Made by a program: the position numbers and the translations under genes. Positions 674-32,724 of a stretch of 35,065 nt of DNA are shown in pieces. How positions within the stretch are numbered: the first letter of the stretch is position 1; every line of letters begins with the position of its first letter. Origin of the DNA: a virus (lineage: Duplodnaviria > Heunggongvirae > Uroviricota > Caudoviricetes); IMG/VR virus record IMGVR_UViG_2778261624_000006. One strand, given 5' to 3'. The notes beneath the pieces were generated by a model. It did no database searches, was not told where the DNA came from, and saw only the letters and a program-made list of their open reading frames with translations.

Positions 674-3639
674 TATGCAAGCCTCACAATATAGTTAAAT
701 GCGATGTTTTTGACGGTGTTTTCCGCGTTACCAGCAGCGTTAACGGTGATGGTGTGTCCATGTGAACCAATCGCAACGGAGTGCGTATGAGCACCAATAC
801 CGACAGTATGCGCGTGTGCACCTGCAGATGCTGCTGTGCCGGACAGTGAATGGCTATGATTACCATCTGTACTGGTATTCGCTAACCACCCCGTAGACAT
901 ACCTACTGAGCCTTGTACACCCCAGGTATTTTGACCTGAGCTTGTATAACCATATTGATAAGTATCTTTAAAAACACTGGGGTTAAATCGACGGCCATCT
1001 CTATGGCTGTGATTACCAGCTGCATTCGTGCTGCCACTTAAACTATGGGTATGCGCACCAGTGTTATTCGTGGATTTAGTGCCGTAATCAAACGACGATG
1101 TGGTTTTCGTCCCCAAATCCGTACTGGATGCGCTGGCGCTGTGGGTATGCGATTTAATGCCGTCCTGTTCCTGAGACAATACGGCCCGACCACTGGCAGG
1201 TTTGCCCTTAATCGTCCAGCCACGCATATCAGGGATCACGCCTGACGGATAAGCGGCTGCAAGTTTCGGGTATGCAGATTTGTCAAAAGTCTGCCCCTGC
1301 ATCAGGGCATAGCCAGACGGAACGGTATCTGATGGCCACGGGATTGGTGCGCCAGGCGGATAAAACTGCTCTGATGGCGTATAGAGTGAATAAACTGTAC
1401 CGTCCGTTAACCCTTCCGGCTTATTAGCAGAATATGCTGGTGACGTATGAATCGTCACGCTGGCATTACTGGTATAATCCCATTGAATATTTACACCAGT
1501 CGCATAATTTCCGATTGCAACGTAAATATCGTAAGTATCACCAGATGTATTGACCCAGGCAAAATTTGTAAACCCTGTCGATGTGCGCTGCCATAAAGCA
1601 CCAGTAATCCCCTTCGGATTACCATTACCTGCACGTAAAACAAGTTCAGATATACCTGCCTGTTGAGGTGACCCCACGTTAAATCCAGCGCCACCAATCA
1701 ACGTAATTGAAACAACAGAACTCGCCTGTGGCATGGTTACCGTTGCTAATTTGAACCAACCAGCACCACCGCTGAATGACATTGTTGTTGAGTTAAGCGT
1801 ACCAATATCTTTCGGCGTCAGTGTTATATCCGCTGAAAGCGCCTTACCATTCACCTTACGGGCAGAAGGTACCCGACCATTCGCATTGTCATTAGCTGCT
1901 TTCACTGCTTTCGGTGTCGCAGCAAGCGTTTCAGATGTGCTGTTGGTTGCACTACTGAGCTGGACAATTCCTTTTTGTGCTGTCGTAGCGTCCTGTGCGG
2001 TGTATTTCCCGTTAGCCAGGTCATACGCGGCCTTAACGGCTTTTGGCGTTGCCGCCTGTGACTCGGAAGTGCTGTTAGTCGCACTGCTGAGCTGAACTAT
2101 CCCTTTCTGTGCTGTCGTTGCATCCTGTGCGGTGTATTTCCCGTTAGCCAGGTCATACGCGGCCTTAACGGCTTTTGGCGTTGCCGCCTGTGACTCGGAA
2201 GTGCTGTTGGTCGCACTGCTGAGCTGTACTATCCCCTTTTTCGTCGTGCTCGCATCCTCAAGCGCCACGGCGGATGCAATATCCTCTGCCCGTTTTGCTG
2301 CTGTCTCGGCGCGCGTTGCCGCGGATTCCGCCGTACTTTTGCTCTGTGCTGCCGCTGCCGCACTGCCAGCAGCCTCTGTCGCCTTCGTGGATGCCGTCGT
2401 GGCGCTGCCCCTCGCTGCTGACGCCTGTCTGGTCGCCTCATCTTTTGAAGCAGACGCAGATGATGCCGATGACGCCGCCGAACTGGCGGACGATGCGGCA
2501 GCCGTTTTTGAGGATTCTGCGCTGGTTTCCGACGCTTTCGCGTTCGTTTCGGATGTCTTCGCTGCGGAAGCAGACCTCGCTGCTGCGCTGGCCTGTTCAG
2601 TGGCTTCGCCAGCCTTCGTTGTGGCTGTTGAAGCGGATGATGCGGCGCTTTCTGCCGATTTTCCGGCGGCGGTGGCACTGACTGCTGCCTCCTCTGCCTT
2701 AATGGACGCCTCACGGGCCGATGATGCAGCTGCTGTCTCAGAGTCTGCCGCAGCTGAGGCGCTCTGTTCCGCTGCCGTTTCAGAAGACCTGGCATTCGTC
2801 TCGGACGTTTTTGCCGCCTTCACGGAATTTCCTGCCGCCGTTGCCGAGGAGGCTGCACTGCTGGCGCTTGTGGAGGCGTTCGTTTCTGATGATTTTGCCG
2901 CCTCTTTGGAGGCCGCCGCATCTCTGGCTGAAGTGGCGGCTTCTGACGCTTTCGTCGTCGCAGTGGATGCAGAAGTGGCTGCTGATTTTTGTGACGCTGC
3001 AGCATTCGTTTCTGACGTTTTCGCCGCACCGGCACTGGTGGCCGCCGCGCTTTTTGAGGACTCTGCAGCGGCAGCACTTTTTGATGCTTCAGTGGCCTTT
3101 GTTGATGCCGTTCCTGCGCTGGAAGACGCCTCCTGAGCCGAAGTCGCGGCCTGTCCGGCTGACGTGCTGGCTGCACGCGCTGAGCCTGCAGCATCAGTCG
3201 CATGGGTTGCCGCCTCACGGGCAGATGTGCCGGCATCACTGGCTGACTTCTTCGCGGCTGCCGTGTTCTGTGCCACCGCGGACGCGTTACGCGTCACCTC
3301 TTCCACCATCAGTTCAAAACGGCGCAGAGCCTCCGGACGGGCATCATCCTCCGTCATGGCACCGAGAAAATCATTCAGCGTACCGGGTCGGGAATCTTCA
3401 TACACGGTGATGGTCCCGGCATGTGACGGCGGGAATCCTTCCACCAACAGAATAACGCTGTACTGACCGTACTCAACGTCCATGCTGTAACGCCCGGCTT
3501 CATCCGGATTTTCTGAGGCCAGCGTGTTCACCACCACCGTGGTGCTGTTACGTTTTGCTTTCAGCTGGATTGTGCAGTTCTGTACCGGTTTTCCTGTGCC
3601 GTCTTTCAGTACACCTGAAATCTTTACTGCCATATTCAC
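673..3639 (-). CDS. stf: side tail fiber protein (Stf), 988 aa, with long Ala/Ser/Thr-rich region, three tandem 45-aa repeats and His-rich HxH motifs near the C-terminus
   Basis: Single long ORF after lom in the lambda gene order; conserved N-terminus; repeat unit [44 protein letters not shown] seen three times; GAHTHS, GNHSHS and GAHAHT motifs. Confidence 0.85.
1837..2241. repeat. three tandem ~135-bp direct repeats inside stf (two near-identical copies ~1972-2106 and ~2107-2241, one diverged copy ~1837-1971)
   Basis: Direct reading of the DNA: the same ~135-bp string recurs back to back; encodes the 45-aa fiber repeat. Confidence 0.8.
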
Positions 3640-3697: not shown

Positions 3698-4297
3698 TCA
3701 GAACTTATAACCGACACCCACGATGAAACCGTCAGTGCGCCAGTCGCCACTGCCGGAGCCTTCATAAGCAATATCAATGGCCACGGATTCGGTCGGGTTA
3801 AACTGCACGCCAGCTCCCCACGCCAGAGACGTGTTGCTGTGGCGACCGTCATCACTTCCGGTCAGCACGTCGTGCGTTTTCCCCTTGTTGTCAGTTACGC
3901 GGAGATAATCCCCGGAGAAAGTCGACACACGGCTGTAAGCCACACCCGCCATCGCATACGCGCTGAACCATTCATTCACGCGCACAGACGGCCCCGCCAT
4001 TACGCTGAACCAGCGGTTACGAACGGAATCTTCATGCCAGCGAGTATCGCTGTAATGGGTCAGCTGGCGATTCTTGTCTCCTGCATAGCTGAATGACGTC
4101 ACCAGCCCCAGCGTATCCGTAAACTCATAACGGTATTTCACGTTAATCCCGTTCAGATCATCACTGCCGGGAACGTTGGTCCGGGCATGAAGATACCCCG
4201 CGCTCAGCGTGGACTGATGTTCAGAGGCCCATGCAGGCGCACCGGATACGGCCAGACAAATGGCTGCGGACAAAATGGCGGCACAAACTTTACGCAT
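3698..4297 (-). CDS. lom: outer membrane protein Lom (Ail/Lom family)
   Basis: 199-aa ORF with signal peptide and beta-barrel-like sequence ending in a C-terminal Phe; lies between J and stf as in lambda. Confidence 0.9.
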   Translation of the reverse strand: MRKVCAAILSAAICLAVSGAPAWASEHQSTLSAGYLHARTNVPGSDDLNGINVKYRYEFTDTLGLVTSFSYAGDKNRQLTHYSDTRWHEDSVRNRWFSVMAGPSVRVNEWFSAYAMAGVAYSRVSTFSGDYLRVTDNKGKTHDVLTGSDDGRHSNTSLAWGAGVQFNPTESVAIDIAYEGSGSGDWRTDGFIVGVGYKF

Positions 4298-4367: not shown

Positions 4368-7300
4368 TCAACGAATACTGATGCCGGAAGACGCTTTTTT
4401 GGTCACAATCACCGTACAGTCGGTGATATTGCCTGCCCCCTGATTGCCTTTCTGGAAAATCTTAAACTCCAGAGTGACGCTACCACCACCACTAGGCATA
4501 TCAATAACTGCACTGTAATTTCCGCTCCCCGGATCGTCATACGCTATACCGTTAAAAATAATGGGCGGAATAATAATCTGGCGGTCAAAGTTATGATCAT
4601 CGCTGATGGTGACTGTAACCGTACCGTTTGGTGTTTCCGTGTTACCCCACGTACCGACTTTTTTCGGGAAGGCTTTTGATACAGCTTTAACGAAATCCCC
4701 TCTGACCAGGGTCGCCTCCAGCATGCCCTTAATCGTACAGTTCTGGTTAATCGTGACATTGTTGAGCGTTCCTGAGTTCGCATTCACACTACCACTGATA
4801 TCCGCATTTTTAGCGGTCAGCTTTCCGTCTGATGTCAGGGAAAATACCGGAGGACTGCCACCGCTGGTAATGGCGGGGGCTGTCAGGCGCTTCAGGAACA
4901 CGTCGTTCATGAATATCTGGTTGCCCTGCGCCACAAACATCGGCGTTTCATTCCCGTTTGCCGGGTCAATAAACGCGATACGGTTAGCGGCAACCAGAAA
5001 CTGGCTCAGTTTGCCTTCCTCCGTGTCCTCCATGCTGAGGCCAATACCCGCGACATAATGTTTGCCGTCTTTGGTCTGCTCAATTTTGACGCCCCACATG
5101 GCATTCCATTTATCGTTAGCGTCCTGCCACTCTTTCGAAAACTCATCCAGTCTGCTGGCGTTATCCTCCGTCAGATCAACTTTTTCCAGCAGCTCCTTGC
5201 CGAGATGGGATTCGGTTATCTTGCCTTTGAAAAAATCCAGGTAACCTTCCGCATCATCGCTCGCCCGACCGACGGCCTCCACGAATGCCGATTTGCCAAC
5301 GGTGTTCACACTGCGGATATAAAAGTAATAATCATGGCCCGGTTTGATATTGATACTGGCGGCTATCCAGTACAGCGCCGTACCAAGATAGCGGGCTGTG
5401 GTTTCTACCTGCCTGATATCGGTAATCCGCGTTTCCGAGAACCAGAACTCAAACTGTACCGTCGGGTCATAAACGGCAAGATGCGGCGTGGCGGTTATCT
5501 GAAAATAGCCCGGCGTCAGCTCAATCCGCGACGGCACTGCAGGTGCGGCAATCCGGAACGATACCGATGCCGGATCGCCCTGCTGCCCCCGGGCATTTAC
5601 CGCCCGGACTGTCAGCCTGTAGTTCCCCAGCGCCAGTTGCGTGAAGCGGTATGTGGTTTCCGCCGTCCGGGCTGTGCTGACCAGCCGCTCACTGCCGTCA
5701 TCCGCTGCCACGGTCAGGCGAAGCATGAAACTCACGCCCTTCACCACCTTCGGCGTATCCCAGCGAGCCAGTACCTGATACTCCCCGCTGTCTGCGGTAA
5801 CTTCGGCAGTCAGGTGCTGCACTGCTGGCGGCGTGACACCATTCACCGTGCCGCTCTGGTCGCCGTCAAAGTGCGCCCCGTTATCCACGATGGCTTCTTT
5901 TTCCGGTACATGCTGCACGGCGGTGATGGCATACGTGCCGTCGTCGTTCTCACGGATACTCACGCAGCGGAACAGGCGCTGGCGCAGCGTCGGCAGCTTC
6001 AGCCCCCACACGCTGTATCCGGCAACGCCGTCAGGAACACGGCTCACTTTTACCTTCACGCCGTCGGTGACGGACTGGACCTCCACGCTGACCGGATTGC
6101 CACTTCCGTCAACCAGGCTTATCAGCGTGGTACCGGAGGATGGCAGCGTGATTTCACGGTCGAGCGTCAGCGTCCGGATCTGGCTGTTTACCGCCAGCAC
6201 GCGCCCGCCGATGCTGATACCGGCATAGTCATCATCACAGATTTCAATGACATCGCCCGGCACATGGCGAAGCCCTTCTGCGCCCACGCTGAAGTCCACG
6301 GTCTGCGTTTCCAGCAGCTCCGTTTTAATCAGCCACAGCCCGGTTCGGTGTGCCTGCCCCCGGCTGGTACAGCCAAAGGCATCCATCTTCGTGACATTAC
6401 GACCGTAACGGGCAATGGCCTGCGTGTCCTCCACAAGCTCTGTTGCCGTTTCCCAGCCGTTATCCGGGTCAATCCAGTTCACCTCAACGGCATTATGGCG
6501 GTCCTTCAGGGCGCTGAAACTGTAGCGGAACGGCGCGCCATCATCCAGCATCACCACATTACTGCGGTTATAGGTCCACACCTTATCCGACGGCCGGTCC
6601 TGCACGAACGTCAGCGTCTGCCCGTTCCATACCGGCATACAGCGCATCGCCGAGCAGAAATCACTGAGCACATCCCACGCCTTACGCTGTGTGGTCAGGT
6701 ACGCATTACAGGTGATGCGCGGCTCCGTACCGCCAAAACCGTCCGGCACCGACTGGTCGCAGTACTGGCCGATGACATACAGCGCCCATTTATCCACATC
6801 TGCCGCACCAAGACGTTTCCCCATGCCGTAGCGCGGGTGGGTCAGCATATCCCACAGACACCAGGCCATGTTGTTGCTGTATGCCGGTTTTAACGTTCCG
6901 TCCCAGATACCGCTGTATTGCCGCGTCTGCGGGTTATAGTTCGACGGCACCTGCAGAATGCGCCCGCGAAGATGATAATTACGGCTCACCTGCTGGCTGC
7001 CGAACTGCTCCGAATCCACCTGTACGCCGACCAGTGCCGTATTCGGGTAGCACTGTTTCACATCGATGATTTCGGTGTATGACGACCAGAGCGTTTTGTT
7101 CTGCAGCTGGTCTGTGGTGCTGTCCGGCGTCATCCTGCGCATCCGTATATTGAACGGGCGCGGCGGCAGGTTACCCACCACCACCGAGGCCAGATACTGC
7201 GAGGTGGTTTTGCCCTTAATGGTGATGTCTTTTTCCGTCACCCAGCCACCATTACGCTGTATCTGAACCAGCAGGCGAACTTCCGACGGATTCCGGTCCC

Positions 7301-7682
7301 CCTTTGAGGTGGTTTCCACCAGTGCCTGCACACCGAAGGTAAAGCGCAGTCGGTCAATGTTTGCCGACGTGATGGTCCGGGTGATCGGCGTGTCGTATTT
7401 CACTTCCGTACCCAGCACCGTCTCGGAGCCGGAGGATTCAAATCCCTCCGGCGGTGTCTGCTCCTGCTCACCGGCCCGGAACACCACCGTGACGCCGGAG
7501 ATGTTGGTATTCCCCTCACTGTCCAGCACTGGCGTACTGTTCAGCAGCACGCTTTTTAATCCATCCACCGGACCTTCAACCGGCCCTTCGCTGATGGCAT
7601 CGATCACACTCAGCAACTGCGTGGACTTCAGGTTGTCCTTCGTTTCGCGCGGAGTATGCCCCTTACTGCTGCCTTTACCCAT
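4368..7682 (-). CDS. J: tail tip host specificity protein J (central tail fiber), 1104 aa; C-terminal region differs from lambda J
   Basis: N-terminal ~950 aa recalled as near-identical to lambda J; ATG at 7682; the last ~150 aa do not match my recollection of lambda J and the protein is 28 aa shorter. Confidence 0.95.
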
Positions 7683-23383: not shown

Positions 23384-23578
23384 ATGTCAACGAAGAACAG
23401 AACCCGCAGAACAACAACCCGCAACATCCGCTTTCCTAACCAAATGATTGAACAAATTAACATCGCTCTTGAGCAAAAAGGGTCTGGGAATTTCTCAGCC
23501 TGGGTCATTGAAGCCTGCCGTCGGAGACTAACGTCAGAAAAGAGAGCATATACATCAATCCAAAGTGATGATGGATGA
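23384..23578 (+). CDS. small conserved phage protein (64 aa), Arg-rich N-terminus, possible ribbon-helix-helix DNA-binding fold
   Basis: ORF with ATG about 200 bp from cos reading away from it; GGGGCAACCTC immediately upstream as RBS; family uncertain. Confidence 0.6.
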   Translation: MSTKNRTRRTTTRNIRFPNQMIEQINIALEQKGSGNFSAWVIEACRRRLTSEKRAYTSIQSDDG

Positions 23579-23938
23579 ACATCCCGGTTTCTTCCACCAT
23601 CGCACCGGAAAAGCGACTATGAGGGTAACCCTGCGTCTGTCAGCACAGTAAAACCCGGTGTGCATCGTTTTTGATTATTCCCGCACACTCACGCAGAAGG
23701 AATTCCCCGTCGGGCTACGGTCATGGTTAATGCGGGAATACGGCGACGATACAGCGCAGCTAAAAGGGTAATGGACAGATAGAGCGGTTTATTTCATTCC
23801 ACAGGATTCTGAGTGCCCCCCCTCCTCCAATAGGCTGAGCATCCACCTATATAGTTTTAATTTTCATCAATCCATTTAACTATCGTTTAATTGTTGTCAC
23901 ATAGGATTCTGCCGTTTTTAACAATGCAGGATAATAAG

Positions 23939-24232
23939 ATGAAAAAAATGTTGTTTTCTGCCGCTCTGGCAATGCTTATTACAGGATGTGCTCAACAGAC
24001 GTTTACTGTTGGAAACAAACCGACAGCAGTAACACCAAAGGAAACCATCACCCATCATTTCTTCGTTTCGGGAATTGGACAGGAGAAAACTGTTGATGCA
24101 GCCAAAATTTGTGGCGGCGCAGAAAATGTTGTTAAAACAGAAACCCAGCAAACATTCGTAAATGGATTTCTCGGTTTTATTACTTTAGGCATTTATACTC
24201 CGCTGGAAGCGCGTGTGTATTGCTCACAATAA
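23939..24232 (+). CDS. bor: Bor lipoprotein (serum resistance), 97-aa reading from MKKMLF
   Basis: Lipobox LITGC; strong match to lambda Bor as recalled; opposite strand to the lysis genes as in lambda. Confidence 0.9.
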   Translation: MKKMLFSAALAMLITGCAQQTFTVGNKPTAVTPKETITHHFFVSGIGQEKTVDAAKICGGAENVVKTETQQTFVNGFLGFITLGIYTPLEARVYCSQ

Positions 24233-24263
24233 TTGCATGAGTTGCCCATCGATATGGGCAGCT

Positions 24264-24725
24264 CTATCTGCACTGCTCATTAATATACTTCTGGGTTCCT
24301 TCCAGTTGTTTTTGCATAGTGATCAGCCTCTCTCTGAGGGTGAAATAATCCCGTTCAGCGGTGTCTGCCAGTCGGGGGGAGGCTGCATTATCCACGCCGG
24401 AGGCGGTGGTGGCTTCACGCACTGACTGACAGACTGCTTTGATGTGCAACCGACGACGACCAGCGGCAACATCATCACGCAGAGCATCATTTTCAGCTTT
24501 CGCATCAGCTAACTCCTTCGTGTATTTTGCATCGAGCGCAGCAACATCACGCTGACGCATCTGCATGTCAGTAATTGCCGCGTTCGCCAGCTTCAGTTCT
24601 CTGGCATTTTTGTCGCGCTGGGCTTTGTAGGTAATGGCGTTATCACGGTAATGATTAACAGCCCATGACAGGCAGACGATGATGCAGATAACCAGAGCGG
24701 AGATAATCGCGGTTACTCTGTTCAT
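24264..24725 (-). CDS. Rz: i-spanin Rz
   Basis: 153-aa reading from [17 protein letters not shown] matches lambda Rz; N-terminal transmembrane segment and coiled coil. Confidence 0.9.
24323..24505 (-). CDS. Rz1: o-spanin Rz1 lipoprotein, embedded in the +1 frame of Rz
   Basis: 60 aa with lipobox VVVGC and a proline-rich stretch; entirely inside Rz. Confidence 0.9.
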
Positions 24726-25219
24726 TGCTGACCCCACAAACAGATTTCACGCTCAATCTCACGACGAGTCATGAGACCTTTCCATTGCTTACCGCCAGCA
24801 TATGTCCAGCGACGTAGCTGATCACATGCGCCTTTGATATCGCCCTGGTTTATTTTGCGAAGAAGCGTCGATGTTCTGAAATTGCCAGCACCCACGTTGT
24901 AAACGAATGAGTAAAGAGCGCCGCGCATTGTTTCCGGTATATCGACTTTGATGTACGGGTTAATTTGTCTGGCGACCGTGGCAAGGTCTTTATTCAGGAG
25001 GGCTTTGCATTCTGCTTTGGTATACGTTTTACCGAGCATGATGTCTTTTCCTGTATGCCCGTGACATACAGTCCATACACCAACAATATCTTTGTATGGT
25101 ATGTAGCTGACACCTTCCAGACCATCGTTACCACTTGGGCCAGTGATTAACACTGATGCTATAGCAATTGCTCCGCCACCAATAGCAGCAGCAACGGCTT
25201 TTCGTAATGATGGAGGCAT
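24722..25219 (-). CDS. R: SAR endolysin (T4-type lysozyme, glycoside hydrolase family 24; phage 21 R-like)
   Basis: N-terminal Gly/Ala-rich signal-anchor-release segment [20 protein letters not shown]; catalytic E, D and T spacing typical of T4-type lysozyme; ATGA overlap with S. Confidence 0.9.
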
Positions 25220-25434
25220 TATTCACCTCTCGCAGCCTTGCGCTTATCTTCTTTAATCTTGAAATAAAGGTTTGTCAGGTACGTCAGCAGGCCAAATACC
25301 AGGCTACCCAGCACACCTATTGCTGCCCACTGTGAGGGCGTGACTTTATCGAGCAGCTGTAAAAACCAGTAACCGGCACTACCTGCTGAGGTGCCATAGG
25401 CGACACCCGTTGTTAACTTATCCATGGATTTCAT
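25219..25434 (-). CDS. S: pinholin S (phage 21 S-like), dual-start motif MKSMDK
   Basis: 71-aa reading with two transmembrane segments and a basic C-terminus; matches S21 as recalled; ORF track extends further 5' to 25479. Confidence 0.88.
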
Positions 25435-25560
25435 AACCCCACCTCGCAGACAAAGCGGGTGTAAATTGAGGGAATACAACGTATCGCAAAAAAGCAGAAA
25501 CGTAACAGACTCGGAGTCAGTGAATAACTCAGGTATTGGGTTATCAGCTAATATCGAGAC

Positions 25561-25592
25561 TCAAAAAATGGAAAAACCCGCTCGACGGCGGG
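25561..25592 (-). terminator. putative intrinsic terminator upstream of S on the late strand (candidate tR')
   Basis: Hairpin CCCGC-loop-GCGGG followed on the minus strand by TTTTTCCATTTTTT. Confidence 0.45.
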
Positions 25593-26023
25593 TTTAAGCT
25601 GTGTGACGAAGTAACCACTCTTAACAGCATAACCAATTTTTTACGTACGTAAACCACAAAATGATATTTGCGAGAATGCTACCGAGTATTGAAAACACCA
25701 CTACAAATACATAAGCAAATCTCAACAAATAACCAACAAATAATTTCCAGTGTTATTTTTAGCCGATTTAAATTGAACCTTCAAATTACAGAGCACTTAT
25801 AAATAACATCCGTTAATATAAATTGGCTAATAGATTTATTTTTATTCAGCCAAGATCCATGAATAGGATTCGATAGAAAAAAGTTCAGATAAAAATAGAG
25901 ATCTACTTCACAAATCAAACGAGAAACCAAAACTTACATCTTGAAATAATCACATTGATTAGATGAATATTTATCGCGCAGTGACATCATTTTTTAATAA
26001 TAGTTCAAAAAAAAGGGCTCACG

Positions 26024-27106
26024 ATGAAAAAATTAACAGTGGCAATTTCTGCTGTAGCTGCATCAGTACTGATGGCGATGTCTGCTCAGGCAGCTGAAAT
26101 TTATAATAAAGACAGTAACAAGCTGGATCTATATGGGAAAGTTAATGCCAAGCACTACTTCTCCTCTAATGATGCAGATGATGGTGATACTACTTATGCC
26201 CGTCTTGGCTTCAAAGGTGAAACCCAAATCAACGATCAACTGACTGGTTTCGGTCAGTGGGAATATGAATTCAAAGGCAACCGCGCTGAATCTCAAGGCT
26301 CCTCCAAAGACAAAACCCGTCTTGCATTTGCAGGCCTGAAATTCGGGGACTACGGCTCAATCGATTACGGCCGTAACTACGGTGTAGCATATGACATCGG
26401 TGCGTGGACTGACGTTCTGCCAGAATTCGGTGGCGATACCTGGACCCAAACAGATGTGTTCATGACTGGTCGCACCACTGGTGTTGCAACTTATCGTAAC
26501 AACGACTTCTTTGGTCTGGTTGATGGTCTGAACTTTGCTGCTCAGTATCAGGGTAAAAATGACCGCACTGACGTAACTGAAGCTAATGGTGATGGTTTCG
26601 GTTTCTCCACTACTTATGAGTATGAAGGATTCGGTGTAGGTGCAACCTATGCTAAATCTGACCGCACTAATAATCAGGTTATCTACGGTAACAACAGCCT
26701 GAATGCATCTGGTCAAAATGCTGAAGTATGGGCAGCTGGTCTGAAATATGATGCGAACAACATCTATCTGGCTACCACCTATTCTGAAACCCAGAACATG
26801 ACTGTTTTTGGTAATAACCATATTGCCAACAAAGCACAAAACTTCGAAGTAGTTGCACAATATCAGTTCGACTTCGGTCTGCGTCCGTCCGTTGCTTACC
26901 TGCAATCTAAAGGAAAAGACTTGGGTGCGTGGGGTGATCAGGACCTGGTTGAATATATTGATGTAGGTGCAACCTATTACTTCAACAAAAATATGTCCAC
27001 TTTTGTTGATTACAAAATCAACCTGATTGATAAGAGCGATTTCACGAAAGCATCTGGCGTTGCTACCGATGATATCGTTGCTGTAGGTATGGTTTACCAG
27101 TTCTAA
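26024..27106 (+). CDS. nmpC: phage-encoded general porin (OmpC/OmpF family; NmpC/Lc-like)
   Basis: 360 aa; signal peptide ending AQA; 16-strand porin signature with C-terminal YQF; sits between Q and S on the opposite strand as in DLP12 and PA-2. Confidence 0.9.
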
Positions 27107-27243
27107 TTTGATTACTAAAAGATATGTTGCGGGAGGCTTTGCCTCCCCAACATATAAGTGGCTCCCTCAAGCCACTTCCTTTAGGAGCACAACCTTGCTT
27201 CTAACTATATAAACCTTCTGTTATATATTACCCTTTATTTTTG

Positions 27244-27277
27244 GGGGCGTTGCAACGCCCCATTTTTAATAATTTTT
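27244..27277 (+). terminator. rho-independent terminator downstream of the porin gene
   Basis: GGGGCGTTGCAACGCCCC hairpin followed by ATTTTTAATAATTTTT on the plus strand. Confidence 0.6.
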
Positions 27278-27294
27278 AGTAAACAATTGGCATA

Positions 27295-27678
27295 TTAATT
27301 AGAGTTATTAACAACGATATCCATCTCTAACCGGATATCTAATGCCATTAACATCCCTTCAATTATGCCCTCAGCCTTCTGTAACCTTTTCCCGATATAA
27401 CCATCAGAGCAGCAATGCTTACCTGCCAGTGACATGAATGTCATACCGACTACATAATAATCTACTAATAAATCGTGCAAATCGCTGTTGTTCTTTTTCA
27501 GACGGGCCATGCACCCGCAAATAATCATCGCGTCATCGTCACAACATTGCGGGCGAGATTTTACTTTTGAAGTAATTAATCCCTTAAAACCGGCGGCAAT
27601 GGACGACCAGGTCACATCTTCATGATTATTAGCCGCCCACGCTCCCCAACGCTCAAGAACCATCTGAATATCACGCAT
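27295..27678 (-). CDS. quuD: late gene antiterminator Q (phage 82 / QuuD type); ORF track extends to 27693
   Basis: Cys-rich zinc-binding region ([20 protein letters not shown]); position directly before the late region; matches DLP12 QuuD as recalled. Confidence 0.85.
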
Positions 27679-27763
27679 CAACTTACTCCACAAAACTCAG
27701 ACCAGAACGCCAATTACAAGCAAAAATCAACAAAACAGTATTAGTTGATTGTTATCTCTGACT

Positions 27764-27886
27764 TCATACTCCTGCTCCTGTCAGTGTTTTGGCGTAATTC
27801 TTCAGTATTCGGTAATCGGTCAAAACAGAGCCGGGGAAACGATATAAGCGCAGACGCCCCCAGCGGTGGCGAAGAAGTTCTGCCAT
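27764..27886 (-). CDS. small hypothetical ORF (40 aa) between rusA and Q, possibly YlcG-like
   Basis: Hand-translated ORF MAELLRHRWGRLRLYRFPGSVLTDYRILKNYAKTLTGAGV; not in the ORF track because shorter than 60 aa. Confidence 0.3.
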   Translation of the reverse strand: MAELLRHRWGRLRLYRFPGSVLTDYRILKNYAKTLTGAGV

Positions 27887-27900
27887 ATTAAACTCAAACA

Positions 27901-28263
27901 TCATTCATTCCCCATTTCGGTGATGGTCAGTTCCAGCCTCCCACCTTTGGTAACAGGCATCTTCACAACGCGGTAATCAACGACCTGAGCATCATCCAGC
28001 CAGAAACCTGCTTTAGTGAGTGCGTCAAAAGCGGCTTTTTGCAGATTATCCAGGTCACGGCGACGGCGATCCGGCATGTGGCACTCAATGCGGATTTTCA
28101 CAGGCATAGCCAGGCCGATATCCAGCATTGCGTTTTTAATGATTCGGGCGACGTTATCGCGGTATGCCTGCCCCTCTGCGCTGACGTGCGTGCGCCCGCG
28201 ATTATGGCGGTAATAGCGATTATTGCTCGGAGGCCAGGGTAATGTGATGCTGTAGGTATTCAC
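27901..28263 (-). CDS. rusA: Holliday junction resolvase RusA
   Basis: 120 aa; matches E. coli RusA as recalled; nin-region position. Confidence 0.9.
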
Positions 28264-28550
28264 GCCTTAATAACCCCCTCTTTCAGCCAGATAACCTGTG
28301 TTCTCGCCATACCTTCCAGCGCGCATTCTTTTGCATATGCAGCATCGACAAAATGTGTGCGGCGGTCGATTTCGTCGTGGCAGGCAGAACATGCAATGGT
28401 GGCAATCAGGTCTGGCGGTTTGGTACCGGTGCCGCACAATCCAGTCAGCCGGATATGTGCCAGTACAGACGTTTCAGGGTTGCCATTACATACGCCAGGG
28501 ATTCTTACCTGGCATTCCCGACTACGCGCTGCTTTTCTCAAATCAGCCAT
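28260..28550 (-). CDS. ybcO: nin-region protein YbcO (DUF1364, putative nuclease), 96-aa reading from MADLRK
   Basis: Cys-rich motif [14 protein letters not shown]...CSACHDEID; the start overlaps the ninE stop (ATGGCTGA). Confidence 0.8.
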
Positions 28551-28713
28551 GATTCCTCCTTGCTGCCAGTCGCAACCATTTTTTATCAACCAGGCTGGCG
28601 GTATATCCGAGCAGTGTTGGTATTTCGGAAGGCTTCAGCTCCGGTTTACGCTTACGACGATCTGGTACTCTGTAGATGTGTCCGTTCATGACACGAATAA
28701 GCGGTGTAGCCAT
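28543..28713 (-). CDS. ninE: NinE-like small protein (56 aa)
   Basis: Hand-translated: [56 protein letters not shown]; start overlaps the ybcN stop (TAATG); below the ORF track size cut-off. Confidence 0.6.
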   Translation of the reverse strand: MATPLIRVMNGHIYRVPDRRKRKPELKPSEIPTLLGYTASLVDKKWLRLAARRNHG

Positions 28714-29168
28714 TACGCCTCCTGCTTGTCGCGGAGCAGCTGGAACTCGCAGCTCTGCGGAATAGTCAGGTGGCAGCCAATATTCACCGCCCAGGCTTCA
28801 ACCTTACACAGGAAGACATACATCTCTCCGGTATCAAGATCGGAGGTATGGCGTAACGACTGGATAGTGGTGATATCACCGGTTACGACATCAACCAGGT
28901 CTTTGGTTTCATAACCGAGATATGTGTGTTTGAGAGCATCTTTTACCCAAGCTGGAGTAGCGAACGTTTTACCCCTGCTGATGAGGTATTCACTGATTTC
29001 GCTGTACCACATGTGGCTGAGTGCATTCTGGGAAAGACTGCGTTTCTCACGCCACGGTTTAAGCACCATGCGAAAGCATTTGCCCTCCTCCAGATAAGGC
29101 TGGATCTGCCGACCGATAGCGGTGAAGTTACCGCGATGTAATTTGATGCCATCTTGTGGGAGATTCAC
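28713..29168 (-). CDS. ybcN: YbcN-like nin-region protein (DLP12 ybcN homolog, DNA base-flipping protein), GTG start
   Basis: 151 aa; matches DLP12 YbcN as recalled; not lambda NinB. Confidence 0.8.
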
Positions 29169-29266
29169 GCTTCACCTCCGCAGAGGTCAAACGCTGGATA
29201 CAATATATCGCAGGTGCATTTCTGCATCTGTGGAGGGAGAAGAGAGTTTGGATTGTGTGTGCGCAT
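29165..29266 (-). CDS. small hypothetical ORF (33 aa), possibly YlcH-like
   Basis: Hand-translated [33 protein letters not shown]; stop overlaps the ybcN start; very short, so weak. Confidence 0.3.
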
Positions 29267-29355
29267 AAACGTCCCCGTTTAGCGCAGAAGTCACCGGAGT
29301 TGTTCAGGCTCCGATGACATGATTATGGCGAGTTGATTATCGCAAATCAAAGGTT

Positions 29356-29712
29356 TTAATTGTGCTTTATTCCTTCAAGCGTTGCCTTCATACCAACCAA
29401 AGAAATGTTTAGCTCTCCAACTTTCTCAGGGCTATATAATTCAGAATGAAGCCAATATTCTGATTTATCTAAACATCTTTTAGCCAGCTCTCGATCAAAG
29501 TCTACGACTTGGGAAGACGCTTCATACCAAAGCCTATAAAGTTTTTCTTCTTCGTTTGGGTTATTAGGCTCACCACGTTTTAATTTTTCAGTATATAAAA
29601 TTGTTGAATAAATCGCAGGAGTTAATCCAGTGATTGCCCTCTGCCGCAGATCGGATTTGTTTGTTATCCACCCCAACAGACGATCTCCCATCCATGTGAT
29701 AATTGTATCCAT
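29356..29712 (-). CDS. hypothetical protein (118 aa), no family recognised; AT-rich gene
   Basis: Clean ORF with plausible start; no transmembrane segment or signal peptide; no motif I can place. Confidence 0.6.
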   Translation of the reverse strand: MDTIITWMGDRLLGWITNKSDLRQRAITGLTPAIYSTILYTEKLKRGEPNNPNEEEKLYRLWYEASSQVVDFDRELAKRCLDKSEYWLHSELYSPEKVGELNISLVGMKATLEGIKHN

Positions 29713-30173
29713 GCTTTAGCCCTTCTTAGTAAATAGTGTGTAGGGCGACTGAAGGACCGAGTTTATGCTTTTTCGCATTGCTTTCAGTTAGTACACCGGT
29801 ATCGCACCGGAAACAATCCTACGGCAAATTGGTTGTCTGACCTCTCGGTTTTTCGTGCATTAACCGATACCCACTACAGTCTCGGCGAAAGCTGCACACC
29901 CCCAGGGTGTACTGGTAGCACTCGGCACAGCCTAGCACGCCACTTTCTTCTCACTATCCAGTCTAATTTTATCCCCTAGTCAGACACTCAGATGTAGTGC
30001 TCCGCAGCGGCATGCGGGGGAATACAAAAACTCGGACAAAATTGGGCCCTCCTTTTTGAATCACTCGCGGGGATGTAGTTATTAATACATGGAAAAAGAT
30101 CTGTTTTCAAATCCAACATTATATGGTTTCAATACCACGGGGTGGCTATGTGTTTCTCATTGTTAATTGGAAT

Positions 30174-30497
30174 CTACTGTAATCGATCCGAACGTAAATG
30201 CGGCAAAACTCGACTCCACTTATCATCCTGCCACGGCCGGAATTTTACATGTGCCGTTTCTCTGGCAAGGATTGCCTGTGCCTTATTGAGTATCTGGGGA
30301 TATTCTTGCTCGATAGAAGTGAAGCGACCAGCTTCACGATGCTCCGCAACCTGAAGAAGAGGAGTAACGTTCTGGTAGGTAATTAACATCACATTCCCTG
30401 CTCGCCATAACCAGGCGAGTGTGCAAAGTTCGTTATCAGTGAATTGTTTTGTGATTGGGTATTGTTGAACTGCTAGAACGAGAACGCCAGCATCCAT
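30174..30497 (-). CDS. hypothetical protein (107 aa), no family recognised
   Basis: Clean ORF; an extended -10 promoter-like element lies upstream; no recognisable motif. Confidence 0.6.
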   Translation of the reverse strand: MDAGVLVLAVQQYPITKQFTDNELCTLAWLWRAGNVMLITYQNVTPLLQVAEHREAGRFTSIEQEYPQILNKAQAILARETAHVKFRPWQDDKWSRVLPHLRSDRLQ

Positions 30498-30575
30498 TGG
30501 CAGTCTCTATAGTAAAACCATAGCTCAGGACGCTTCGTTCAGGATAGATAATTTTATTGTACTTACCTAACTTTC

Positions 30576-30590
30576 TTATTATAGCACGGT
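30576..30590 (-). promoter_or_regulatory. candidate extended -10 promoter (TGcTATAAT) for the 107-aa gene
   Basis: Minus strand reads GTGCTATAATAAG about 80 nt upstream of the ATG at 30497; no good -35 element. Confidence 0.4.
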
Positions 30591-30608
30591 TGAAAAAGTG
30601 ATTATTAC

Positions 30609-32135
30609 TCAAAAATAAACCTCACCATCAACCATATATTTGAGAGTACTTATCGCCTGCTGGGCGGATATTGTTTTCATTAAAGGATAGTGTTTAAAAA
30701 CAATGCCATTCATAAAATAGATATCACAGGTTTTATTATCTGTATTGATTATGATTTTTTCGAATGTTTTATAGGCAAGTGTACGACATAGCTCTCGCCC
30801 ATTTTTACTGGTTAAGTCAATAGCATGAAAATCACCAAGTGAACTCACCGCTTTACTCTTCAAAGTTTTTAATGATACAGAAGCCCTTCGTAATTCCTTA
30901 TCTAATACTCTGATTTTTTCTGCTATAGCGGTAACTTCAGGCGCAACAGATAATGCAGCAATTAAATTATTAATTTTCATGTGGAGCTCAATAATTTTCA
31001 ACTCTAAAGTTTCATTAGCATCTTTCTTGTTTTCAACTGGTTGGATTTTACTACAATTAAAAAGCAACTCATTAATGATATTATAATCAACCAAATCTCT
31101 CTTTATTGATGGCCTGTCACATCGATGCAGTCTTCTCATCGGACAAACATAATAGCCATGCAAACTTCCAGATACCGCATGAACAATCATGGTATTACCA
31201 CAAGCCTCGCACTTCATAACTGTTCGAAGTAGATTTATCAACATAGGATTTTTGCTACTATTGCTAATACCAAAAGGTGCCAACCGAATTTCCTGTACAG
31301 CGTAAAACAAATCATCTGATATGACTCTGGGATAATAGCCAGCGATTTCACTTATTCCTTTACCTCTTGCACGATATGAAGGTACGCATATACCTATCAG
31401 AGCTTTATTCGCTAATAATTTTTCAATTACAGAAGGTCCCCATGCACTTTCTTTTCCTGAGAAATTCTTTACAGCATGATCATTTAAATACTTGGCTATT
31501 GCATTCAATGAGCGCCTTTCCATCCTGAGTTTAAAAATTAGCTCAATAGTTTTCACCCTGTCGGGGTCTGGAACAAAAGCCGTTCTTTTGTCATCTAAGG
31601 AGAGCCATCTCGGACAAGACGCCGTCATAATCGTACCTGATTCCAGTGCATCCTGCCGTTTTTTCTTCCATGATAATTTAACCCGACTTGACTTTATCTC
31701 GCTTTCTTCATTTGCCCTTTGTGCTATAAGTATGGCTTTTATTAATGAATATGGCTCATTCAAAGAGTCAATATTATAGACTGTATTGTCGCAAAGAGTT
31801 ATAACATCAATACCGTGATTCAAAATCAATTTCAGACGTTCAATCGCTTCACCGACTTTTTCTCTTGAAAGTCTGTCCAGACTTTCAACTAACAATGTAG
31901 TTCCTGGCAATATATAACCATGCTCTATAGCATCTAAAAATTCCGAAAAAGCTCCTGATTGTGCATGCTTTCCTTTGAATGCACTTAATCCTAAATCTTC
32001 ATATGTTATGGTATCAAGATAATAATCACTATTTACCTTTAACCATTCAGCAATAAGTCTTCTCTGTCGGTTTAATGAGTCGCCAGACATCTGACCTGGT
32101 GATGAAAATCGCATATATGCTATGGCTTTTTTCAT
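30609..32135 (-). CDS. ybcK: large serine recombinase (resolvase-type catalytic domain, recombinase domain, zinc ribbon); YbcK-like
   Basis: N-terminal AIAYMRFSSPGQ...R motif of serine recombinases; Cys cluster CEACGNT...YYVCP...C; 508 aa, the typical large-serine-recombinase size. Confidence 0.85.
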   Translation of the reverse strand: MKKAIAYMRFSSPGQMSGDSLNRQRRLIAEWLKVNSDYYLDTITYEDLGLSAFKGKHAQSGAFSEFLDAIEHGYILPGTTLLVESLDRLSREKVGEAIERLKLILNHGIDVITLCDNTVYNIDSLNEPYSLIKAILIAQRANEESEIKSSRVKLSWKKKRQDALESGTIMTASCPRWLSLDDKRTAFVPDPDRVKTIELIFKLRMERRSLNAIAKYLNDHAVKNFSGKESAWGPSVIEKLLANKALIGICVPSYRARGKGISEIAGYYPRVISDDLFYAVQEIRLAPFGISNSSKNPMLINLLRTVMKCEACGNTMIVHAVSGSLHGYYVCPMRRLHRCDRPSIKRDLVDYNIINELLFNCSKIQPVENKKDANETLELKIIELHMKINNLIAALSVAPEVTAIAEKIRVLDKELRRASVSLKTLKSKAVSSLGDFHAIDLTSKNGRELCRTLAYKTFEKIIINTDNKTCDIYFMNGIVFKHYPLMKTISAQQAISTLKYMVDGEVYF

Positions 32136-32391: not shown

Positions 32392-32724
32392 TTAATGTGG
32401 TGTGCTTCGTGACAATAAATTAATAACCAACACACCGGCACAAATCAACATCATGCCTATAATGGCTGGCAGGTCCAGCCGTTGGCCGAAAAGTCCCCAT
32501 GACAGTAAGCTAATCAGGACAATACCGACTCCTGACCAGATAGCATAAGCAATCCCTGTAGGAATATAAGCCAGCGTCTGAGCTAATAACCAGAATGATG
32601 CACAATAACAAATAATTGTACCAACAGATGGCCATAACCGTGTAAAACCTTCTGAAAACTTCATTAAGGTTGTACCAATGACCTCTGCAAGTATTGCACC
32701 ACCAAGATAAATATAAGGGTTCAT
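32392..32724 (-). CDS. emrE: SMR-family multidrug efflux transporter EmrE (110-aa reading from MNPYIY; ORF track extends to 32778)
   Basis: Four-transmembrane SMR protein with conserved Glu in TM1 (AILAEVIGT); matches E. coli EmrE as recalled. Confidence 0.92.
   Translation of the reverse strand: MNPYIYLGGAILAEVIGTTLMKFSEGFTRLWPSVGTIICYCASFWLLAQTLAYIPTGIAYAIWSGVGIVLISLLSWGLFGQRLDLPAIIGMMLICAGVLVINLLSRSTPH

Follow-up and report, generated by a model that had tools for sequence, protein, structure and literature searches.

An intact NmpC/Lc-type porin gene with an ipeX-type 3'-untranslated region between Q and the lysis genes of a DLP12-type lambdoid prophage

The stretch of phage DNA analyzed here (35,065 nucleotides; hereafter the window) carries, between the late antiterminator gene Q and the lysis cassette, a porin gene that, judged by its sequence, is an intact prophage allele of the NmpC/Lc type, a kind that is already known, common and described. 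Very probably, the locus as a whole is to be explained by a DLP12-type lambdoid prophage that carries a general porin of the nmpC/lc type as a 'moron', with which it would convert the surface of the lysogen. Work reaching from the 1970s to the 2000s has already described the porin gene, where it lies, its regulatory RNA and the conversion phenotype, and the locus therefore has little weight as a discovery. Its value is one of annotation, as an intact prophage NmpC/Lc allele that goes under the RefSeq label 'OmpC', and two modest leads on prophage–host surface remodelling emerge from it: allele variation restricted to loops, and an overlap, in antisense, between ipeX and the late leader. The features of the locus are collected in Table 1.

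Table 1. Features of the porin locus and its neighbourhood, in coordinates of the window.
Feature	Position	Strand	Basis
Rz with embedded Rz1 (spanin)	Rz 24264..24725; Rz1 24323..24505	-	Pfam Phage_lysis
Lysozyme (endolysin)	24722..25219	-	Pfam Phage_lysozyme
P21-type holin	25219..25434	-	Pfam Phage_holin_2_1
Lysis cassette, whole	24264..25434	-	Pfam Phage_holin_2_1, Phage_lysozyme, Phage_lysis
Intrinsic terminator, ~140 bp upstream of the holin start codon	25574..25595	-	AAACCCGCCGTCGAGCGGGTTT then TTCCATTTTT
AT-rich regulatory region of the porin gene, ~30% GC	25596..26023	+	GC profile
Weak candidate porin promoter	TTGAAA 25941-25946, 18-nt spacer, GAATAT 25965-25970	+	Manual reading
Porin gene (nmpC/lc/'ompD' type), intact	26024..27106	+	Open reading frame list, Pfam, phrog_410
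Signal peptide, 23 codons, cleavage AQA/AEIYNK	26024..26092	+	Identity with the sig_peptide feature of PA-2 J02580
Structured 3'UTR of the porin mRNA, ipeX	27107..27270	+	Near-identity to K-12 DLP12 and PA-2
Strong late-strand hairpin, probable tR' of a short late-leader RNA	27113..27155 (stem 27122..27155)	-	Fold and U-run
Candidate late promoter pR'	27225..27255	-	Manual reading of the 188-bp Q–porin spacer
Porin/ipeX intrinsic terminator	27244..27267 (hairpin 27244..27261)	+	GGGGCGTTGCAACGCCCC then ATTTTTAATA
Late-gene antiterminator Q (QuuD type)	27295..27678	-	PF06530 E 4e-53; phrog_79; quuD in CB9615 and K-12

The porin gene runs from ATG to TAA over 360 codons with neither a frameshift nor an internal stop codon, as seen from the open reading frame list and its translation, and it contains no insertion sequence. 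The initial annotation had taken the gene for intact and for a complete OmpC/OmpF-family porin with a signal peptide, and both statements withstand careful translation and profile searches. The Pfam model Porin_1 (PF00267) matches over all of its 337 positions (E 3.1e-153; 510.6 bits against a cut-off of 23.7), the NCBIfam model of the OmpC subfamily scores 518 bits, above its cut-off of 484, and phrog_410 aligns over 360 of 360 positions (E 1e-224). The mature chain, residues 24-360, aligns end to end with the solved trimeric porins OmpK37, OmpC, PhoE and OmpF (E 1e-137 to 1e-120), and the first 23 residues (MKK...AQA) equal the annotated signal peptide of PA-2 Lc without a single difference. 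In the alignment with K-12 OmpF and OmpC, OmpF shares the mature N-terminus AEIYNKD and OmpC comes close to it, and the pore-lining residues K16, R42, R82, D113, E117 and R132 of OmpF are all kept, together with the PEFGGD stretch of loop L3. The C-terminus (...VGMVYQF) ends in the terminal Phe of the aromatic beta-signal. Every trait of the general diffusion porin family (Porin_1; OmpC/OmpF/PhoE) that can be checked in a sequence is thus present.

Exact matches in annotated genomes settle the identity of the porin, which is 100% identical in amino acid sequence to the porins of CB9615 (WP_000737275.1) and PhiR34_1. The RefSeq product name of the CB9615 copy is 'porin OmpC' despite its prophage context, and the name 'OmpD' was met only as an annotation in phage records. 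A MAFFT alignment places the porin at 91.4% identity with PA-2 Lc, and at the same value with K-12 NmpC once IS5 is taken out (90% with Lc by BLASTP), as against 64% with OmpC and 62% with OmpF of K-12. The chromosomal OmpC and OmpF share with it the family, the fold, the constriction residues and the mature N- and C-terminus, but are encoded at the micF-ompC and ompF loci; an assignment as chromosomal OmpC orthologue was rejected on the 64% identity and on the prophage context found in place of the micF-ompC locus. The marks of the NmpC/Lc module that can be read from a sequence, in turn, are all found: identity of ~90-91%, a position between Q and holin opposite to the late operon, and ipeX ahead of the terminator.

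The window is collinear with the argU-integrated DLP12-type prophage of E. coli O55:H7 strain CB9615 from J to O, at 94-99% nucleotide identity, and its gene order is also that of the isolated phage PhiR34_1 and of the remnant DLP12 of K-12. In DLP12 (qsr'), nmpC lies between quuD and essD just as the window porin lies between Q and holin, in the same orientation, within the same flanking genes from ybcN to nohD and within the collinear order quuD, nmpC::IS5, essD, rrrD, rzpD, borD, and it shares the signal peptide, the N-terminal half and the ipeX 3'UTR. The K-12 gene differs in being split by IS5 after codon 346, whereas the window porin is uninterrupted at the equivalent position (~27062); its product has 365 amino acids with other sequences in loops L4, L5, L6 and L8, as compared with 360 here, and its prophage is without the head and tail genes, both of which the window keeps. 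Lc of PA-2 is the classical lysogenic-conversion porin ('protein 2'). The lc locus (J02580) is 92% identical in nucleotides across 1.8 kb and has in common with the window both annotated CRP sites, the signal peptide and the 3' region, while its product of 365 amino acids represents a different loop allele. The arrangement had been likened from the outset to DLP12 (nmpC) and PA-2 (lc), and the collinearity with both upholds this comparison. Closest of all are the CB9615 argU prophage and the phages PhiR34_1 and PhiR68_2 (annotated as 'OmpD' in both phages), with a locus 99.9% identical to that of the window; these elements carry ybcL-ybcM, whereas the window has unrelated DNA at 29352..30599. 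In the 434B recombinant, the same Q and the same lysis genes are found with a porin gene disrupted by IS5 after codon 346. Because this arrangement is present in the genome of an isolated phage, the late genes of 434B are presumably expressed across or past the Q–holin interval.

The locus is widespread. Of 5426 complete E. coli genomes, 3918 (~70%) contain a match to its 1821 bp (1.8 kb), with a single place covering at least 80% of the locus in 2465 genomes and an identity of at least 99% in 139 records. Among phages, 43 records match, and PA-2 lc (92%) is one of them.

As first described, the porin gene is placed between Q and the lysis cassette and is read against the late genes: both neighbours lie on the minus strand, upstream of Q follow rusA, ybcO, ninE and ybcN on the same strand, and beyond the lysis genes bor/iss lies on the plus strand. 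The coordinates of the lysis cassette were carried over from the CB9615 annotation with an offset of +5479, and Q additionally shows distant similarity to Q21 in the structures 6jnx and 6p18 (E 8e-7). Homology to the porin-less phages Ayreon, cdtI and mEp460 ends at ~25450, ~16 nt upstream of the holin start, and on the Q side the homology with 1H12 and its relatives ends inside the last codons of Q, at ~27319. These two breaks delimit an exchangeable porin module of ~1.87 kb. In other phages the Q-to-S slot holds blc/ybgA (1H12) or a DNA methylase gene (Ayreon). The lambdoid morons lom and bor/iss and the Q-to-S cargo genes stx, blc and those of methylases are likewise independently transcribed within the late region, but encode different proteins; to our knowledge, the porin is the only such lambdoid cargo that comes with a regulatory RNA directed against porins of the host. 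A PADLOC search of the porin and its neighbours gave no match to a defence system. In 1H12 (905..1586), which has a related Q, the first cargo gene after Q, the lipocalin gene blc, is also encoded opposite to Q and immediately follows a terminator that faces in the late direction; it mirrors the arrangement of the porin.

Allelic variation was compared in 13 NmpC/Lc-type porins at the protein level and in 11 copies of the locus at the DNA level. The first ~180 residues are almost invariant among the 13 proteins, and the differences fall nearly all into five stretches (residues ~181-186, 214-232, 262-266, 299-313 and 334-349), which align with loops L4-L8 of OmpF/OmpC in the C-terminal half. 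In the 11 DNA alleles, variable columns cluster correspondingly at 26550-27100, and little variation is seen in the 120 bp before the ATG, in the block 25500-25650 and in the 3'UTR. A confinement of variation to surface loops is usual where a porin acts as receptor or antigen.

On the plus strand, the terminator scan found a single signal at the 3' end of the porin gene, the hairpin at 27244..27261 (-13.9 kcal/mol), which is followed by ATTTTT; its stem is kept in 11 of 11 alleles, and its loop varies. With this terminator the porin mRNA would carry a 3'UTR of ~162 nt, and this predicted 3'UTR corresponds to ipeX, for which a length of 167 nt has been published. The spacer from the stop codon to Q shows a handful of differences from K-12 DLP12 and PA-2, and the 3'UTR (27107..27270) folds with an energy of -63.2 kcal/mol (z = -8.8). 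An Rfam scan of 23500-29500 at E values up to 1 gave nothing over the ipeX region and one chance miRNA match. According to PMC12197685, ipeX of DLP12 is an RNA of 167 nt made as part of the porin transcript; its repression of OmpC and OmpF is attributed to Castillo-Keller 2006 in PMC12197685, PMC5069750 and PMC8065619, and its origin from the porin promoter in DLP12 and PA-2, as well as its function, is also covered by PMC7177473. The initial annotation made no mention of ipeX, but asked whether expression of host ompC or ompF changes in the lysogen. For such a change a mechanism is already in the literature, and the ipeX sequence that would exert it is almost unchanged here. The prophage sRNA svsR (PMC12247714) was considered as a relative of the porin/ipeX locus and found unrelated, as it lies in cI and targets lamB.

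A further hairpin lies directly beside the porin stop codon (27122..27155). It folds with ~-23 kcal/mol on either strand (-22.7, z = -6.2), and its stem is followed on the minus strand by CUUUUAGU, which contains the U-run CUUUU, and on the plus strand by AAGUGG, which has no U-run. The initial annotation had credited the porin with a terminator of its own. This holds for the plus-strand terminator, whose hairpin and T-run lie ~140 nt past the stop codon, but not for the hairpin beside the stop, should that one have been meant, since it is oriented for the late strand. In lambdoid phages, pR' and tR' just downstream of Q are established for lambda, 82 and 21. The spacer between Q and porin contains a matching candidate for pR', with a -35-like TTGCAA (27255-27250) and a -10-like GGGTAATAT (TAATAT; 27230-27225) that are separated by 19 nt. 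The candidate resembles lambda pR' (AAAATTGGGTAAATT), its -10 element resembles that of lambda (GGGTAAATT), and a second -10-like element, TATAGT (27209-27204, minus strand), follows ~15 nt past the first. The -35 element falls within the loop formed by the porin terminator, and the candidate block is nearly invariant in the 11 alleles. A motif, ATATAACAG, is common to the window spacer and 1H12, whose Q is related (87% in nucleotides) and whose cargo is different, and 1H12 has a canonical late-direction terminator at the place equivalent to the hairpin at 27113..27155. A sigma-70 consensus scan of the intergenic regions returned no promoter for the porin (plus strand) or for the late strand; given this silence and the 19-nt spacer, the placement of pR' between Q and porin is plausible rather than proven. 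A position between porin and holin, near 25574-25595, was also considered and is less likely, because 1H12 keeps both the motif and the late-direction terminator directly after Q.

If the placement of pR' is right, ipeX and the late leader would be fully complementary, and the two transcription units would converge over each other's control signals: the ipeX 3'UTR (27107 to ~27268, plus strand) would span, on the other strand, the candidate pR', its leader of ~100 nt and tR'. That such a convergent pair exists and is mutually inhibitory is a very doubtful proposal. Were it true, inhibition would be reciprocal, by promoter occlusion or collision and by cleavage of double-stranded RNA; the overlap could explain the processing of ipeX from the porin mRNA, and it would couple the expression of lysogenic conversion to the late switch. 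No mention of a convergent arrangement of ipeX and the late leader was found in the searchable literature.

Upstream of the porin gene, both CRP sites annotated in PA-2 are identical in the window (25599..25619 and 25895..25915). A search of the window with the CRP consensus gave 15 matches against 16 expected by chance, so that the assignment of these sites is drawn from their identity with the PA-2 sites only. If transcription started near 25977, the proximal CRP site would be centred at -72.5, as is usual for class I sites. The minus-strand terminator between porin and holin (hairpin energy -12 kcal/mol) lies in the most conserved intergenic block of this interval, where the 11 alleles differ in a single column of 25550-25599 and in no column of 25600-25649. 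It could be an insulator of the lysis genes or a second late terminator; in the lysogen it may keep stray antisense transcription from reaching the lysis genes, and polymerase modified by Q may read through it. The terminator directly adjoins the distal 'CRP site' of PA-2, which extends to 25619, in one conserved block.

Conversion of the lysogen surface, the explanation favoured here, would proceed as follows. As its sequence shows, the gene encodes a porin of the OmpC/OmpF family that is exported through Sec and keeps every constriction residue of the pore; it occupies an exchangeable cargo slot and points against the late operon. In the lysogen it would be transcribed from its own catabolite-sensitive promoter, as suggested by the literature on PA-2 and DLP12, and the transcript would end at the terminator 27244-27267. 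The mRNA would carry an ipeX-type 3'UTR and, given the sequence identity and the function published for ipeX, would lower host OmpC and OmpF post-transcriptionally. As a net effect, host porins that serve as phage receptors would be swapped for a phage porin with allele-variable surface loops; the conversion would remove the receptor of the phage itself and that of other OmpC-dependent phages, and the cell would stay permeable. After induction, Q-modified RNA polymerase starting in the Q–porin spacer would read antisense through the porin gene and pass the terminator 25574-25595 into the lysis genes. The ipeX tail predicts reduced OmpC and OmpF in the lysogen, which would bear on its sensitivity to phages and colicins and on its permeability to antibiotics.

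The tail tip of the phage bears on the receptor. The last 300 residues of J match those of phage 434 at all aligned positions but ~12 (86% overall when a 33-residue gap is counted), as compared with 66% identity to lambda J. Phages 434 and PA-2 adsorb to OmpC, for which the 434-type J is specific. The combination of a 434-type J with the porin and ipeX would amount to removal of the phage's own receptor, and fits the idea, raised in the initial annotation, that the prophage porin excludes phages which use host porins.

The selected product may instead be mainly the ipeX RNA, which would remove the OmpC and OmpF receptors, with the porin acting as a compensating channel and not as the excluding agent. 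Among the alleles, the 3'UTR is more uniform than the 3' half of the coding sequence, K-12 retains ipeX though its porin gene is disrupted, and the function described for ipeX (PMC12197685 and PMC5069750) agrees with such a role. The 3'UTR, however, overlaps the probable late promoter, leader and tR', and this overlap alone could explain its conservation. A primary role of ipeX is possible, though on the unlikely side, and it complements surface conversion by the porin without excluding it.

It is unlikely that the benefit of the porin lies mainly in permeability or stress, that is, in uptake under catabolite derepression, tolerance of heat and envelope stress, or antibiotic entry, and not in phage exclusion. 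Such a benefit would suit the CRP sites annotated in PA-2, the contribution of NmpC to the heat resistance of E. coli AW1.7 (reported by Ruan 2011, as cited in PMC4563881) and the finding that nmpC mRNA is a target of RybB, and so belongs to the host envelope-stress regulon (PMC3333887). Almost all allele variation, however, is located in the half of the protein with the surface loops, as expected from pressure by phages, colicins or antibodies and not from transport. A gain in permeability would not be exclusive of conversion of the surface.

An intact gene may also be ordinarily silent, for example through silencing over the AT-rich upstream region, and persist as a passenger linked to Q and the lysis genes. 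The nmpC gene of E. coli B is called 'quiescent' in the title of Prilipov 1998, as cited in PMC3333887, which means that an intact nmpC can be silent; the ~30% GC of the upstream region and the lack of a good sigma-70 promoter in the scan point in the same direction. Against this, in an LF82 lysogen the expression of NmpC from the related prophage Perceval stands 10-fold above the local background (PMC9928086), Lc is a major protein of PA-2 lysogens (Schnaitman 1975, as cited in PMC8065619), and ipeX RNA has been detected in clinical isolates and in K-12 (PMC7177473 and PMC11230228). The near-invariance of the N-terminal 180 codons and of the promoter-proximal DNA across alleles likewise argues for selection, and ordinary silence of the gene is distinctly unlikely. 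A chance open reading frame, a decayed pseudogene or a host chromosomal porin outside a prophage has no support and is refuted by the full-length family matches (E 1e-153 to 1e-224), by phage genes on both flanks and by the same arrangement in isolated phage genomes.

The J gene (4368..7682, minus strand) has an in-frame deletion of 99 bp (33 amino acids) in the receptor-binding end, with its junction near 4466-4470. The residues missing from the window J, as they stand in 434 J, are NPGGTRYTGYGFEVRKNGVLIASRETKGAIPGS. All of the best 12 matches among complete E. coli genomes and all of the top 40 phage matches have the extra 99 bp, and the deletion looks private to this element. It may alter or abolish adsorption, and because of it the receptor of this phage is uncertain.

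Other genes of the window also face the host. A Lom/Ail outer-membrane protein (lom) is encoded at 3698..4297 (minus strand) and a Bor/Iss serum-resistance lipoprotein (bor/iss) at 23939..24232 (plus strand), and a gene for an EmrE-type small multidrug efflux protein (32392..32724, minus strand) adjoins the ybcK serine recombinase gene (30609..32135). The DNA at 29352..30599, which stands in place of ybcL-ybcM of DLP12, CB9615 and PhiR34_1, gave no match in PADLOC. It contains two open reading frames on the minus strand, one of 118 amino acids (29356..29712; phrog_12412, with no Pfam match) and one of 107 amino acids (30174..30497; phrog_7640) with the C-terminal domain of the P22 antirepressor.
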